In this document: positions 58,596 through 63,645 of the stretch, piece after piece
Numbering within the stretch: the stretch's first letter is position 1
Layout: each line of letters starts with the position of its first letter
Origin: Candidatus Poribacteria bacterium
Lineage (GTDB): Bacteria > Poribacteria > WGA-4E > PCPOR2b
Assembly: GCA_965218095.1 (NCBI GenBank)
Contig: OZ244587.1
Location: forward strand, 1,152,001-1,216,000
Length of the DNA stretch: 64,000 bases
Direction: 5' to 3'
Program-made: the position numbers and the translations under genes
Notes under the pieces: generated by a model
What the model saw: the letters and a program-made list of their open reading frames with translations, nothing else
The model's database searches: none
Told to the model about the DNA's origin: nothing

Positions 58596-59486
58596 ATGTC
58601 AAACGCTAATCCTTTCAAACATCCCGGTCAATGGTATCGCGGCAACACCCACAGCCACAGCACAGAGTCCGACGGAAAGCTGCCGATGGCGGAACGCTTT
58701 GCGGCTTACCGTGAGGCAGGTTACGACTTTTTGGTGCTGACCGACCATCGAAAGGTCAATGATGTTTCCACCTACAGTGATGACGGTTTCCTAGCAATTT
58801 CTGGCAGCGAAGTACACCCCAACAACCCTTACGGCGGCGACACATATCATATTGTCGGTATAAACCTCCACGAACGCATCAACTGCGCCGAGCTACATCC
58901 TAACGCCGTGATCGAGGAGATTAAGCGGCAGGGCGGCGAGGCGGTGCTCTGCCACCCCTACTGGTGTGGACACACGCTGCTGGACTATCTGCCGCTGAGT
59001 GGATACTTCGCGGTTGAAGTCTATAACGACACCTGCATGGGCATCGGCAAGGGCTTTTCCGAACAGGCTTGGGATGACTTATTGGATCGCGGCGGCCCCG
59101 TCTTCGGTATCGCTTCTGACGATGCACACGGCACGGAGCACGACTGTTTTCACGGGTGGGTCATGGTGAAGGTGCCCGAGCTCACCACCGATGCTATTAT
59201 GACAGCGTTTCGCACCGGAGCTTTCTATTCAACCCTCGGGCCGGAGCTGATCGACCTGGAGCTGGTGGACGAAAGCGAAGAGAAAAGGAGCGTCAGCGTC
59301 AAGTGTTCACCTGCACAGTCCATCGTTTTCAAAGCCCAGCGCAGTCGTGGCAAGCGCATCGTTGCCCCCGAAGGGGAGACTCTGACTGAGGCAATGTATG
59401 AAGTGCCGAGCAGCGTCAAGTACGTCCGCGTCGAGATTACCGATGAGACCGGCAAGAAGGCGTGGTCAAATCCGTTTTTCTTTTAA
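58596..59486 (+). CDS. PHP-domain (CehA/McbA-like) metallohydrolase
   Basis: GNTHSHSTESDG, TDH, CHPYW, SDDAH, AWSNP. Confidence 0.9.
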   Translation: MSNANPFKHPGQWYRGNTHSHSTESDGKLPMAERFAAYREAGYDFLVLTDHRKVNDVSTYSDDGFLAISGSEVHPNNPYGGDTYHIVGINLHERINCAELHPNAVIEEIKRQGGEAVLCHPYWCGHTLLDYLPLSGYFAVEVYNDTCMGIGKGFSEQAWDDLLDRGGPVFGIASDDAHGTEHDCFHGWVMVKVPELTTDAIMTAFRTGAFYSTLGPELIDLELVDESEEKRSVSVKCSPAQSIVFKAQRSRGKRIVAPEGETLTEAMYEVPSSVKYVRVEITDETGKKAWSNPFFF

Positions 59487-59572
59487 GCTCAATCTGTAAA
59501 TGACGTGCCAGAGCATGTCCAAAGAATCTCACTGTCAATACTGAGAAAGGTGAGCAACGTTTAACAAGTACC

Positions 59573-59623
59573 GGCGATTGCCTCCCGCTCCCAAAATAGG
59601 CGTGGACAGGCAATCGCCCTTTT
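59573..59623 (+). terminator. Putative intrinsic terminator
   Basis: ggcgattgcct...aggcaatcgcc followed by ctttt. Confidence 0.45.
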
Positions 59624-59709
59624 GCCCGCTGTTAGTATTGTAGAGACAATTCCCTGTGTCTGTTCGCTTGTTGTCCGGCGATGTCCCGTCTTGTAGGAGA
59701 ATTGGCAAT

Positions 59710-60354
59710 ATGAAATCCTATAGTAAGACGATGCCCATTATCTCAAGTGTGGTGGCCGTGGGAGTTCTCTTTATTGTGTCCGTGGGAGCATTAGTCATGC
59801 CCATGCCACGAAACCTATCTTCACTGACACCCGCGGAAGAAGAATACCTCAACAAGAATCTTGCGACGAGGCGAATCTCGGAGGAAGATTTCCCGATGAT
59901 TATCCGCCGGATGCGCCGTGACCCCCAACGGGAAGGTACGTTGAAACGTGCAATTAATAACGATTTCAACGCCCGGTTTTCGCGTGATGTCCACGATATC
60001 AGCCGTGCGGTCCGTGATCCGTTGATTGTTTGGGATACGACCAAACAGTACTTTGAGCAAACGGGCATCCCGAAAGGGTTAGGCAAGATAGGCTTGTCCA
60101 TGATTACGAGCCCGTTTCGAGTTGCGGAGGAACTCATATCGGAACGACAAGAGCACCCTTTGAGGACAAATGTGGTGGCGTTAGCTTGGGGGGTACTGAT
60201 CTCTGTAAGCTTAACGGCATGTTTAGCAGATTTTCGCAATACGTTCGGCTACCCACATTTGGCACCCGTTATCCTGCAGAGTCCAAAAGTTTTGTGGAAA
60301 TTCACGCTGGATAGAATCAGGGAACTGTCAAAGGCGATACAGGGTAAAGAGTGA
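59710..60354 (+). CDS. Hypothetical membrane protein
   Basis: AGGAG upstream of ATG 59710; N-terminal and C-terminal hydrophobic helices. Confidence 0.6.
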   Translation: MKSYSKTMPIISSVVAVGVLFIVSVGALVMPMPRNLSSLTPAEEEYLNKNLATRRISEEDFPMIIRRMRRDPQREGTLKRAINNDFNARFSRDVHDISRAVRDPLIVWDTTKQYFEQTGIPKGLGKIGLSMITSPFRVAEELISERQEHPLRTNVVALAWGVLISVSLTACLADFRNTFGYPHLAPVILQSPKVLWKFTLDRIRELSKAIQGKE

Positions 60355-60474
60355 CTTCTCTTTGTAGGAACAGGTTTCAAACCTGCACTACCTTACAGCA
60401 CCTGCAAATTGACAGGTAAGGCATGGAGGGATACCAAGTCTACAAAAACAGGTCTGTCTAATAGAGTGAAGCTT

Positions 60475-60966
60475 GTGCAAACTCTTCTTCAAATCTGGAA
60501 AATATATCTTGATACTTGTTGTTTGAATCGTCCTTTTAATGATCAGACGCAAGCGCGGATTCGCCGTGAAACTGAAGCCGTTCAGACAATTCTCGCTCGG
60601 TTTTTCACAAGTGACTGGCAGTGGGTTACTAGCACGGTTCTAGTGAATGAAATCAGCAAAACCCCTGGTGCAGCACTACGCGATGATATGGAAGCCTTAC
60701 TAAGTCTTGCACATCAAAATGTCTCGGTTGGTGCGTCGGAACAAACGCGATGCACACCACTTAAATCGTTGGGATTTAAGTGGTTGGATGCTTTGCATAT
60801 TGCCTGTGCCGAAAGCGGTGGAACGGATATCCTTCTAACTACAGACGATCGGATGCTTAGAAGGGCGAAACGCTTCCATTCGCAACTTCGCGTTCGTGTT
60901 GAAAACCCTTGCACATGGTTAGAGGAGATCGCTGAAGATGAACATACGAGATCTGCTAGAAGCTGA
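60475..60966 (+). CDS. PIN-domain (VapC-like) RNase toxin; start uncertain
   Basis: IYLDTCCLNRPFND...E.EA, E, LDALHIACA, LLTTDD. Confidence 0.88.
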   Translation: MQTLLQIWKIYLDTCCLNRPFNDQTQARIRRETEAVQTILARFFTSDWQWVTSTVLVNEISKTPGAALRDDMEALLSLAHQNVSVGASEQTRCTPLKSLGFKWLDALHIACAESGGTDILLTTDDRMLRRAKRFHSQLRVRVENPCTWLEEIAEDEHTRSARS

Positions 60967-62632
60967 GATGAATAAACTCCGTCGTCTGAATCCAGAGGTT
61001 CACGCGCTTTTGGAGAGAATTTTTCAGTACAAAGATGGCAAAGGCGATTATTCCGTGGATCGACACAAATGGATGGAGACGCTTGATGAGGAAACATTTC
61101 TGAACGAGATTCGCCAAATTGAAGCACGCGAGAAAGCTATAGCTATGGCGCATACTCAAATCACACAGCAGATTGCCAAAGAAACCTTAGCCTCTATGGT
61201 GCTCTTGGAAATGGAAGATGCCACAGGCCGGCTCCTCGGAATTGGTAGTGGATTCTTCATACAAAGTAACCAGATTGTAACCAGTTTTCACGTTATTGAG
61301 GGAGCCAAGCGTGGTGCCGTCAAGCTGCTGGGAAACTCAACAACGTATAACATTGAGGGAATCACCGCGAAGAATGAAAAACACGATCTGGCAATTTTAC
61401 AAGTGCCAAATTTTGGAATTCCCCCCCTTTCCCTCGGTAATAGTGATACGGTCGAGATTAGCGAAATTGTGTATGTCGCGGGTAATCCAAAAGAATCGAC
61501 AGAGGCTTTCTCCTACGGTATCATCAGTAGTATCCGAGGAAGTTCTACTGACAGACGGTTCCAGATGACGGCAATGCCTCCTCCGTGGAGCAGTGGAATA
61601 CCGGTGCTAAACGAAAAGGGGGAAGTCATAGGTATTTCAGTAATGACCGTTGCAGGTGAGCAGAATCCTAATTTTATTATTCCGGTCAATTATTTCAAAA
61701 CATTGCTCACTCGGACAGAGCCGGCGAGACCTTTGTCCCAAGGGGAACCATTGGTATCTGCTGAGACTTACTTCAGGTGGGGTTATACAAAATCCGAGTT
61801 GGGTCAGTATGAATCCGCTATTGCGGATTATGACATGGCGATTCAACTCAGACCAGATTATGCAATAGCCTATAATGATCGGGGGGTTGTCAAGGGTAAG
61901 CGGGGTGAATATAAGGCTGCCATTGAAGATTATGACGAAGCAGTTCGCCTCAAACCCGATTGTGCCGTAGCCTACTACAATCGAGGCCGCACCAAAGATC
62001 AACTGGAACAAGGCTCTGCTGCGATTGAAGACTATAACATAGCAATTGACCTTGCACCGGATTACGCTGATGCCTACTATAATCGGGGAAATGCCAAGTC
62101 TACTCTGAAGCAATATAAGGCTGCGATTGAAGATTATGACAAGGCAATTAACCTCAAAATCGATTATTCTATTGCCTATAACGATCGAGGCGTGGCGAAG
62201 TCTGCCTTGAGGCAACATGAGGCTGCGATTGAAGACTATAACATAGCAATTGACCTTGCACCGGATTATGCTGATGCCTACTATAATCGGGGAAATGCCA
62301 AGTCTACTCTGAAGCAATATAAGGCTGCGATTGAAGACTATGACAAGGCGATTAACCTCAAAACCGATTATGCGATGGCCTATAACAATCGGGGAAGTGT
62401 GAAGTTCGCTTTGGAACAATATGATGCTGCGATAACCGACTATGACGAGGCGATTCGCCTCAATCCGGATTATGCCATGGCTTACTACAATCGGGGAAGT
62501 GCGAAGACTAATATAGGTCGTGTCTCGGAAGCGGCGCAGGATTTCCAAACTGCATTGGCACTCGCGGAGCAGACCGGCGATGAGGGTCTCAAAGCCATGA
62601 TTAGCAGCCCTATGGAAATTCACGTTGGATAA
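60938..62632 (+). CDS. Antitoxin-like N-terminus + trypsin-like serine protease + 8 TPRs
   Basis: GKGDYSVDRHKW; GSGF, VTSFHVI, HDLAIL, WSSGIPV; eight 34-aa TPRs. Confidence 0.85.
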   Translation: MNIRDLLEAEMNKLRRLNPEVHALLERIFQYKDGKGDYSVDRHKWMETLDEETFLNEIRQIEAREKAIAMAHTQITQQIAKETLASMVLLEMEDATGRLLGIGSGFFIQSNQIVTSFHVIEGAKRGAVKLLGNSTTYNIEGITAKNEKHDLAILQVPNFGIPPLSLGNSDTVEISEIVYVAGNPKESTEAFSYGIISSIRGSSTDRRFQMTAMPPPWSSGIPVLNEKGEVIGISVMTVAGEQNPNFIIPVNYFKTLLTRTEPARPLSQGEPLVSAETYFRWGYTKSELGQYESAIADYDMAIQLRPDYAIAYNDRGVVKGKRGEYKAAIEDYDEAVRLKPDCAVAYYNRGRTKDQLEQGSAAIEDYNIAIDLAPDYADAYYNRGNAKSTLKQYKAAIEDYDKAINLKIDYSIAYNDRGVAKSALRQHEAAIEDYNIAIDLAPDYADAYYNRGNAKSTLKQYKAAIEDYDKAINLKTDYAMAYNNRGSVKFALEQYDAAITDYDEAIRLNPDYAMAYYNRGSAKTNIGRVSEAAQDFQTALALAEQTGDEGLKAMISSPMEIHVG

Positions 62633-62661
62633 AATTTAGCAAAAGAGGAGGAAGTTGTACA

Positions 62662-63645
62662 ATGGCGGATCTGAGAGTCGGTGTTATTGGTTGTGGTGGG
62701 CACGCGCAGGGGCACTTTGCGATGATTAAAGATGAACCCCGGATGGAACTTATCTCAGTCGCAGAGATCGACGACCAACGGCTGCAGCAGGCAAAGCTCG
62801 CCCATAAACCCGAATCTGCGTTCCGCGATTACCGCGAGATGCTGGATCGAGTCGGCCTAGATGTTGTCTATGTCGTCACCATGCCCGGTCATCTGCTGCC
62901 GATTGTGGTGGAGTGTTTGGGGCGCGATCTGAACACGTCGGTCGAAAAATCGCCGGGGATGAACGTCGGAGAAACGCGGCAGATGCTTGATACCGCCCAA
63001 AATAGCAAAGGCAAAGCGATTCTGTCCGTCAATCGCCGCTACAAGCCAGAGGTTTTGGCGGTACGGAAGTTGCTGCAAGAACGGGGTGGGGCAGTTCAAG
63101 TGGCTGCGGATTACCACAAACTGCCATCGGGGTTGCAGCGTCCGGGCCTACGAGAGGTTGCGCCGCCGGAGATTATCTGCGACTCCATTCACCACGTGGA
63201 CCTGCTCCGCTGGATGGCAGGGCGCGCGCCGACCGAAGCGGCAAGCGCAGTCGAAGTTTACGGCCATTCATGGGCTGGTGAGCGAGAAGGCACGTCCCGC
63301 TACAACGCCGTCATCGCCTTCGACAACGGCTGTCACGGCACAATGATGAGCCACTACGGGGTCGGCTATCGGATTCAGACAGCGGAAGTCCACGCTGAAA
63401 ATATGTCAGCATACTTAGATCTGACGCGGACACCAAAGATCACAGTCTACCTTGACGGAAAACTGTGTGAGGAGCCGCTTGACCTCGACGCTGTCGGTGG
63501 GCCAGACTTCAACGAAACCAGCCATTTCGCGGACTGTATCCTCAATGACACCACGCCGTGGAGTCCGCTGGAGGATGCGGTGAAAACGATGGAATTGTGC
63601 GAAGCCATTGAGCGTGGACACTGTGGGGCGCTTACAACGGTGTGA
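62662..63645 (+). CDS. Gfo/Idh/MocA oxidoreductase
   Basis: IGCGGHA, VEKS, DSIHHVD. Confidence 0.9.
   Translation: MADLRVGVIGCGGHAQGHFAMIKDEPRMELISVAEIDDQRLQQAKLAHKPESAFRDYREMLDRVGLDVVYVVTMPGHLLPIVVECLGRDLNTSVEKSPGMNVGETRQMLDTAQNSKGKAILSVNRRYKPEVLAVRKLLQERGGAVQVAADYHKLPSGLQRPGLREVAPPEIICDSIHHVDLLRWMAGRAPTEAASAVEVYGHSWAGEREGTSRYNAVIAFDNGCHGTMMSHYGVGYRIQTAEVHAENMSAYLDLTRTPKITVYLDGKLCEEPLDLDAVGGPDFNETSHFADCILNDTTPWSPLEDAVKTMELCEAIERGHCGALTTV

Follow-up and report, generated by a model that had tools for sequence, protein, structure and literature searches.

The locus and its gene layout

We analyzed a pair of overlapping genes at positions 60475 to 62632 of a 64,000-nucleotide stretch of DNA from a sponge-symbiont-type bacterium of Candidatus Poribacteria (assembly GCA_965218095.1, contig OZ244587.1, positions 1,152,001 to 1,216,000; hereafter the window, whose numbering is used below). 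The first gene encodes a putative toxin, a ribonuclease (RNase) with a PIN domain, and the second encodes a fusion protein in which a small N-terminal domain (N-domain) precedes a serine protease domain and eight tetratricopeptide repeats (TPRs). The features of this module are:

60475..60966, + strand: PIN-domain RNase gene, putative toxin (GTG start at 60475; alternative starts GTG at 60466 and TTG at 60409)
60938..60966, + strand: overlap of 29 base pairs (bp) between the PIN and fusion open reading frames (ORFs), from the ORF coordinates
60938..62632, + strand: fusion ORF, 564 amino acids (aa), comprising N-domain, linker, HtrA-like protease and eight TPRs
60938..61147, + strand: N-domain, residues 1-70, PIN partner, antitoxin-like, motif KDGKGDYSVDRHKW
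61148..61222, + strand: linker and junction, residues 71-95, with sequence in common with paralogues from QQIAK on
61223..61723, + strand: HtrA-like (S1C-type) serine protease domain (Trypsin_2, HhoA alignment)
61289-61291, 61385-61387 and 61592-61594, + strand: codons of the protease catalytic residues H118, D150 and S219
61586-61588, + strand: codon of W217, which stands at the oxyanion-hole glycine position of the protease
61760..62575, + strand: array of eight TPR units, residues 275-546 (TPR_1)

The open frame of the PIN gene extends from 60409 or 60475 to 60966 on the + strand and matches the Pfam PIN family (E 1.2e-6), while the ATG of the fusion ORF is preceded by an AGGAG sequence 10 nucleotides (nt) upstream. 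In the fusion, Pfam detects Trypsin_2 over residues 103-233 (E 1.4e-24) and TPR_1 in eight stretches (E 1.3e-59); for residues 1-81, no Pfam, NCBIfam or PADLOC family scores above its cut-off. An earlier note, made from the sequence of this stretch alone, had described a PIN gene overlapping by 29 bp a gene for an N-domain, a trypsin-like domain and eight TPRs, and every point of that description is correct.

The PIN and the N-domain each occur in one copy in the 6.35-Mb genome (G000), which is a single contig. The YLDTC..NRPF region of the PIN has a second, weak match (E 0.17) in a 150-aa open frame at the very end of this contig (L003; G000:C1:6350289-6350342, minus strand), which could encode a further PIN from a related subfamily.

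The PIN subfamily and its partner family

The PIN subfamily has 2644 relatives at E<=1e-5, many of them annotated at 163 aa, and the four acidic residues D13, E59, D105 and D124 (163-aa numbering) are invariant in all 43 aligned PINs. To survey its gene neighborhoods, we took one genome per species and the best 80 of 504 confirmed loci, which include records titled Latescibacterota, Anaerolineales/Chloroflexota and Methylomicrobium. A partner-family ORF adjoins the PIN gene in each of these 80 sampled loci, 65 times on its downstream side and 15 times on its upstream side. The converse search, with residues 1-81 of the fusion, recovered 28 homologues of 58-127 aa, mostly stand-alone proteins of 66-71 aa, and the few that carry a name are hypothetical proteins of Candidatus Poribacteria. 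When 1.84 billion representatives were scanned exhaustively for the N-domain with HMMER, only 15 matched at E<=1e-3, indicating that the family is small at this sensitivity. In one natural protein (P0030, 222 aa), the PIN (residues 10-132) and the N-domain (residues 155-218) are joined in a single polypeptide.

Residues G36, Y38 and R42 of the N-domain are nearly invariant across 31 partner sequences, and the partner signature reads GKGDYSVDRHxW. The motif G.GDY..(D/E)R..W, which the earlier note had given for the partners of this PIN subfamily, is thus real, and its proposal that the N-domain has PIN-linked homologues is borne out by both the N-domain search and the adjacency in 80 of 80 PIN loci. 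Its further expectation of a small stand-alone partner fits about a third of the partner ORFs surveyed at these loci (32 of 87) and fails for the remainder.

Matches to the N-domain are patchy, being present in 29 of 61 related genomes with several copies in some of them. At the 29 loci found through the N-domain, an intact PIN of the subfamily is present in eight, a broken PIN or PIN remnant in another eight, and no PIN in 13, one of which (L015) holds a C-terminal PIN remnant seen by eye. This asymmetry, with the PIN never alone and the partner often alone, is the usual pattern of toxin-antitoxin (TA) decay. Family searches found no ribbon-helix-helix (RHH), AbrB, Phd or helix-turn-helix (HTH) DNA-binding domain in the partner family. 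The identification of the N-domain as the cognate partner of this PIN subfamily is supported by these data, and it is highly probable that PIN and partner constitute a TA pairing.

Distant partner-family genes of 73-80 aa with the motif EGDYSVDRDQWL were also found without a PIN (L018-L021, L023, L027, L028, L030 and L032). These lie beside short-chain dehydrogenase/reductase (SDR) and XRE-type HTH genes or in the vicinity of genes that look, by eye, like DNA methylase/restriction-modification and ATPase genes, and it is possible that they are orphan antitoxins or partners of other toxins.

Predicted structure of the complex

As the earlier note had proposed, we modeled the complex of the PIN with the N-domain, using a 43-row alignment for the former and 30 rows for the latter. 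The predicted complex reached an interface score (ipSAE) of 0.86 (runs 0.87, 0.83 and 0.86), compared with 0.31 for the best control; of 80 solved complexes, 58 pass the mark applied to such co-folds, as do 2 of 110 mismatched pairs. Between runs, 75% or more of the contacts recur, and the predicted local distance difference test score (pLDDT) of the partner is at least 77. On the PIN, the confident contacts comprise residues 20-21, 54-58, 103-104 and 146-153, which flank the catalytic residues E59 and D105, and on the partner they fall on the helices 1-31 and 46-62. Profile searches of the Protein Data Bank (PDB) gave nothing at E<=0.01 for the PIN alignment and noise only (E>=0.12) for the N-domain. 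As no sequence relative of either chain is found in the PDB, the result is unlikely to reflect memory of a solved complex. From this model, we infer that the N-domain would bind the PIN beside its active site and neutralize it.

Other models were less informative. The N-domain modeled alone gave a weak prediction of four helices (pLDDT 69.5; predicted template modeling score, pTM, 0.38), the AlphaFold2 model of the full-length fusion from an 18-row alignment was unusable (mean pLDDT 43.6, pTM 0.30), and a search of the ESM Atlas with the N-domain gave no usable match.

Origin of the protease-TPR part

The same genome encodes seven paralogues of the protease part, with 49-63% identity and open frames of 366-667 aa. 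All seven start with a charged-then-hydrophobic leader that runs to ..NAQ and is followed by TPQQIAKKAL. In the fusion, the junction reads ..AHTQITQQIAK (AIAMAHTQITQQIAKETL) at the place where the paralogue leader ends in ..NAQ before TPQQIAK. Since the leaders end exactly at the junction, the N-domain takes the place of the export signal almost exactly where cleavage is predicted. The N-terminus of the fusion is charged and carries no signal peptide (as read from the sequence by eye), in agreement with what the earlier note had stated.

Across the family's 28 other species genomes, matches to the protease begin at query residues 66-79, as expected for the secreted form, except in G016 and G017, where the full N-domain/protease junction is present. 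Outside the fused clade, the closest homologues of the partner are stand-alone proteins of 68-71 aa with 66-77% identity. The occurrence of secreted protease forms and stand-alone partners outside this clade indicates that the fusion is the derived state. To judge from the paralogues, the C-terminal 470 residues of the fusion clearly derive from a predicted secreted trypsin-TPR protein, and with 1-10 trypsin-TPR matches per family genome (E<=1e-20), the family as a whole holds a large expansion of putatively exported protease-TPR proteins. Two of the seven paralogues lie in tandem (G000:C1:6198461-6201701) and the others at five other places.

The earlier note had named as a refuting outcome that the fusion might be a one-off read-through joining a TA operon to one of many trypsin-TPR paralogues. 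Half of this holds, as the C-terminal part does stem from one such paralogue among many; the join itself is not a one-off read-through, as is apparent from its recurrence described below.

The protease domain and the TPR array

Alignment to HhoA (5b6l; E 3.8e-15) identified the catalytic residues H118, D150 and S219, which are invariant in 18 of 18 fused proteins. The region around the serine reads WSSGIP in the fusion, compared with GSSGGP in six of the seven paralogues and GGNGGA in the seventh.

The TPR array contains a tandem duplication of two TPR units at 62018-62391 (Tandem Repeats Finder period 204, 1.8 copies, 95% matches). Among the fused proteins, 17 clusters differ in length by whole 34-aa TPR units; such whole steps, from 392 to 565 aa, indicate that the array expands and contracts in frame.

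We also surveyed the wider partner family, comprising 87 ORFs (with approximate starts) in the 80 PIN loci. Thirty-two of them are short (68-98 aa), 42 have 123-194 aa and consist of the N-domain and a degenerate half-repeat, and a single one is of the protease-TPR type. The remaining 12 are TPR-bearing and are weighed below; such protease-free Poribacteria partners (N-domain, degenerate half-repeat and TPRs) are a second class. Protease-free partner-TPR loci include L090:2958-4694, L068:2964-4031, L082, L055, L109, L114, L063 and L074. Three further TPR-bearing partner ORFs (L029, L031 and L033) belong to another family of the order. On the basis of these architectures, TPR arrays have been attached to the partner domain at least twice independently, and this repeated attachment makes a functional role of the TPRs in the module more likely. 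In four loci (L086, L092, L056 and L102), two partner genes stand in a row.

Conservation, selection and decay of the fusion

An intact fused ORF is present in three of 29 species genomes of the family, namely G000 (564 aa), G016 (565 aa) and G017 (428 aa), at one syntenic locus between PHP-like and Gfo/Idh/MocA genes. In a collection of 5.8 billion proteins, we found 17 clusters of fused proteins of 392-565 aa, with 81-99% identity over residues 1-95. A candidate fourth fused locus (L035) was rejected, as it has the same sequence as L007 of G016, and a scan of metagenome contigs with the junction region gave three relatives of the protease part only and no new fused locus.

The ratio of nonsynonymous to synonymous substitution rates (dN/dS), estimated by the Nei-Gojobori method among G000, G016 and G017, is 0.15-0.27 for the PIN, 0.24-0.31 for the N-domain, 0.22-0.29 for the protease and 0.22-0.24 for the TPRs. 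Values of about 0.15-0.3 everywhere indicate purifying selection on every part. The recurrence that the earlier note had asked about is therefore supported, by three of 29 family genomes, 17 protein clusters and purifying selection.

The other three of the six syntenic loci hold remnants. In G014, an out-of-frame joint at residue 55 connects the N-domain with the last TPR, and the PIN has an internal stop. In G023, a 66-aa N-domain is followed by a remnant of the TPR tail, and the first ~100 PIN codons are replaced beside a 417-aa ORF resembling an insertion sequence (IS). In G003, the N-domain is altered after residue 56, the protease-TPR part is gone and the PIN is cut by a late stop. The PIN is thus intact in all three loci that keep the fusion and damaged in all three that lack the C-terminal part, which suggests functional coupling of the two, in a small number of closely related genomes.

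Genomic context and possible exchange between species

The genes around the module encode, according to Pfam, rhomboid, NTP-transferase, melibiase and HD proteins and two Gfo/Idh/MocA oxidoreductases. The G+C content (GC) of the PIN/fusion module is 45-48%, against about 50-58% in the flanks. Likewise, the synonymous divergence (dS) of the module between species is 0.12-0.45, two to three times lower than the 0.56-0.86 of the flanking genes (PHP-like, 58596-59486; Gfo/Idh/MocA, 62662-63645) in the same genome pairs. The low dS and GC suggest either that the module has recently been exchanged between species by recombination or that its mutational regime differs.

The N-domain/protease junction and the PIN/ORF overlap are crossed, without insertions or deletions, by contigs from four runs, of which three are RNA-library runs from three studies; a contig of run X16 (60300-61227) covers the PIN/fusion overlap. 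The reading frame is likewise unbroken at the N-domain/protease junction in the 17 protein clusters, which were assembled independently. In a contig of run X1, position 61101 is followed directly by 62499, so that 1397 nt are missing and the frame is not kept; this is the same type of deletion as in G014, and deleted and intact alleles may coexist in the sampled communities. A scan for promoters and terminators over 59400-62900 was uninformative (four promoter-like sites where 3.9 would be expected).

The PHP-like gene and the PIN are separated by a 232-aa ORF (59656-60354), which matches no Pfam family and has a hydrophobic segment at its N-terminus. G000 and G016 have this ORF, and G017 and G003 lack it at the same spot.

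Interpretation and alternative explanations

The reading we favor, tentatively and at somewhat less than an even chance, is that the module is a toxin-first TA pair in which the integrity of the antitoxin is controlled by an attenuated, TPR-regulated protease on the antitoxin itself. That the fusion has a selected function of some kind we consider probable. The starting point would be a type-II-like TA pair, with the toxin gene first, made up of the PIN RNase and a small helical partner domain. In one Poribacteria lineage, an in-frame join linked the partner gene to a paralogue of the secreted HtrA-like protease-TPR genes and replaced its signal peptide, so that the protease-TPR part is now presumably a cytoplasmic extension of the antitoxin. 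The protease, presumably attenuated by the tryptophan at the oxyanion-hole position, would become active once a peptide ligand is bound by the TPR array, much as PDZ domains regulate HtrA and DegS. The activated protease might then cut the linker or the N-domain, in cis or, within an oligomer, in trans, and this cleavage would free the PIN RNase, upon which growth would stop.

A more specific version, an autoproteolytic antitoxin, seems improbable to us. Here the TPRs would bind a phage, host or stress peptide and remodel the active site crippled by the tryptophan, the self-cut N-domain would free the PIN, and the module would be part of a wider and so far undescribed Poribacteria class of PIN partners with variable TPR sensors. 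Protease gating and phage sensing, both proposed in the earlier note, are inferences. For a phage trigger there is no evidence, given the housekeeping context and a single partial viral relative of the PIN.

Several observations weigh against the favored reading. In chymotrypsin-fold enzymes, the glycine two residues before the catalytic serine contributes to the oxyanion hole. This residue is a tryptophan (W217) in 18 of 18 fused proteins, and the glycine two residues after the serine is replaced by isoleucine, valine or methionine in all 18, while both glycines are kept in six of the seven paralogues. Given these changes around the serine, the protease is probably attenuated, tightly regulated or inactive; judged by its residues, the fused domain may be a weak protease or a pseudo-protease, and the fixed tryptophan cautions against assuming a vigorous enzyme. 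In addition, 12 of the 87 partner ORFs carry 1-11 TPRs, always from residue 157-159, and no protease (confirmed by Pfam for eight), which implies that proteolysis is not required for the role of the TPRs in the module. The dN/dS of the module is two to five times that of the flanking genes (0.03-0.12), reflecting weaker constraint, and the module has decayed in three of six syntenic loci, with truncated forms (P0001 and P0002) also existing; both the decayed loci and the truncated forms indicate that its function is dispensable. The best-conserved loop of the partner, GKGDYSVDRHKW, lies outside the confident contacts of the predicted complex. No defense-island context was seen around the locus, whose neighbors are housekeeping or metabolic genes, and viral contigs scanned with the PIN alignment gave only one partial match, to residues 105-145. 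Finally, the RNA-library data are Logan contigs and do not prove transcription.

It is possible, if doubtful, that the fusion is a tether or scaffold that does not cleave itself. The N-domain, as an adaptor or an inhibitor that stays bound, would hold the PIN on a TPR platform, regulation would proceed by binding and conformational change, and the TPRs, together with a weak or inactive protease fold, would recruit proteins or localize the RNase. The partner-TPR fusions that lack a protease (the 12 ORFs together with L029, L031 and L033) and the tryptophan fixed at the oxyanion-hole glycine in 18 of 18 fused proteins would fit such a scaffold well, as would the fact that the PIN is never without its partner in 80 of 80 loci. 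A pure scaffold would not, however, be expected to keep an invariant catalytic triad in 18 of 18 proteins or to show a protease dN/dS (0.22-0.29) like that of the rest of the protein. The same two observations bear on the idea that the C-terminal part is a tolerated passenger, which we regard as unlikely: a deletion would have joined the antitoxin gene to a neighboring or transposed secreted protease-TPR paralogue, only the N-domain would matter, and the C-terminal part would be unlinked to the toxin and in the course of being lost. At least seven close trypsin-TPR paralogues in the genome, and 1-10 per family genome, offer material for such an accident; the protease-TPR part has been lost in three of six syntenic loci, truncated proteins exist, and the deletion allele (61101 to 62499) co-occurs in run X1. 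Mere tolerance is nevertheless difficult to reconcile with a dN/dS of about 0.22-0.29 for the protease and TPRs between three species, with the triad invariant in 18 of 18, or with a TPR number that varies only by whole in-frame units in 17 clusters. Moreover, the derived W217 is fixed in the fused clade, and a fixed, derived change argues for specialization after the fusion, and deletion of the protease-TPR part is always accompanied by damage to the PIN (three of three).

Very unlikely, in our judgment, is that the module is not a TA pair at all, the PIN being a regulated cellular RNase, the N-domain its specificity or assembly factor, and the protease-TPR part an addition for quality control. 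The chromosomal, syntenic position among housekeeping genes and the partner's lack of an RHH, AbrB or HTH DNA-binding domain are in keeping with a cellular function of this sort. A cellular RNase would fit poorly with the patchy distribution of the N-domain (29 of 61 related genomes, with multiple copies in some), the PINs frequently broken beside an intact partner, and the lower GC (45-48% against about 50-58%) and dS two to three times below the flanks, which suggest exchange between species. The predicted contacts beside the catalytic residues also speak against it.

Comparison with known systems

In the portions of the literature available to us, neither the fusion of a PIN partner with a protease-TPR protein nor this partner family is described. 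The partner family is strictly linked to the PIN and was previously unannotated; within one phylum it has acquired TPR arrays repeatedly and a whole protease once. If the protease does control the antitoxin, this would be the first TA module with its own sensor-linked protease on the antitoxin, and it would link classical TA biology to bacterial immune systems that are activated by proteases. An autoproteolytic antitoxin, if that version proved true, would be a TA switch independent of the cellular Lon or Clp protease. The fusion is also a clean natural case of a secreted enzyme retargeted to the cytoplasm by exchange of its signal peptide for a binding domain. The source organisms are uncultivated, and the parts of the module are small enough for tests in Escherichia coli.

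Among known systems, the module resembles type II TA systems of the VapBC type: a PIN RNase that has all four acidic residues shares an operon with a small partner whose gene overlaps its own, the two proteins are predicted to contact each other directly beside the active site, and the distribution is patchy and multi-copy, with toxins that have often decayed. It differs from them in that the toxin gene comes first (65 of 80 loci here) and in that the partner has no RHH, AbrB, Phd, HTH or curated family and carries a protease and eight TPRs. The module is therefore TA-like, but the partner, which lacks a DNA-binding domain and lies downstream of the toxin, is not a VapB.

The proteases HtrA, DegS and DegP are allosterically regulated by peptide-binding PDZ domains. 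The fusion shares with them the protease fold, the His-Asp-Ser triad and a C-terminal module of peptide-binding repeats that could act as an activating sensor. It has TPRs in place of PDZ domains; Pfam found TPRs only, and the NCBIfam HtrA models stayed far below their cut-offs. Unlike these proteases, it has no signal peptide, is presumably cytoplasmic and bears a predicted toxin-binding domain at its N-terminus, and its serine region reads WSSGIP where HhoA has GNSGGP, the canonical GxSGG being absent. With the secreted trypsin-TPR paralogues of the same genome, it shares the order of protease and then TPRs and 49-63% identity over the protease; in these, a leader peptide occupies the place of the fusion's N-domain and, as the N-domain is single-copy in the genome, none of them carries one.

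Protease control is an established principle in bacterial immunity, as in gasdermins with trypsin-like or caspase-like proteases and repeat sensors, the Lon-SAVED CalpL/CalpT system, the TPR-CHAT Craspase, and the Lon-dependent turnover of antitoxins. The matches of the fusion in PADLOC are confined to its protease or TPR parts. The protease part matches the reverse transcriptase (RT)-protease of retron type XI (E 9.6e-16), over profile positions 321-504 that cover the protease part only, and Pfam found no RT domain in the fusion, so that it does not qualify as a retron of this type. What the module would have in common with protease-controlled immune effectors is the proposed logic, in which an inhibitory segment is removed by a sensor-linked protease; the retron match is the sole trace of such effectors in the databases. 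In contrast to them, it has no NTPase, nucleotide sensor, RT or gasdermin and no defense-island context; its effector is a PIN RNase, and the protease, the putative sensor and the inhibitor lie in one polypeptide.

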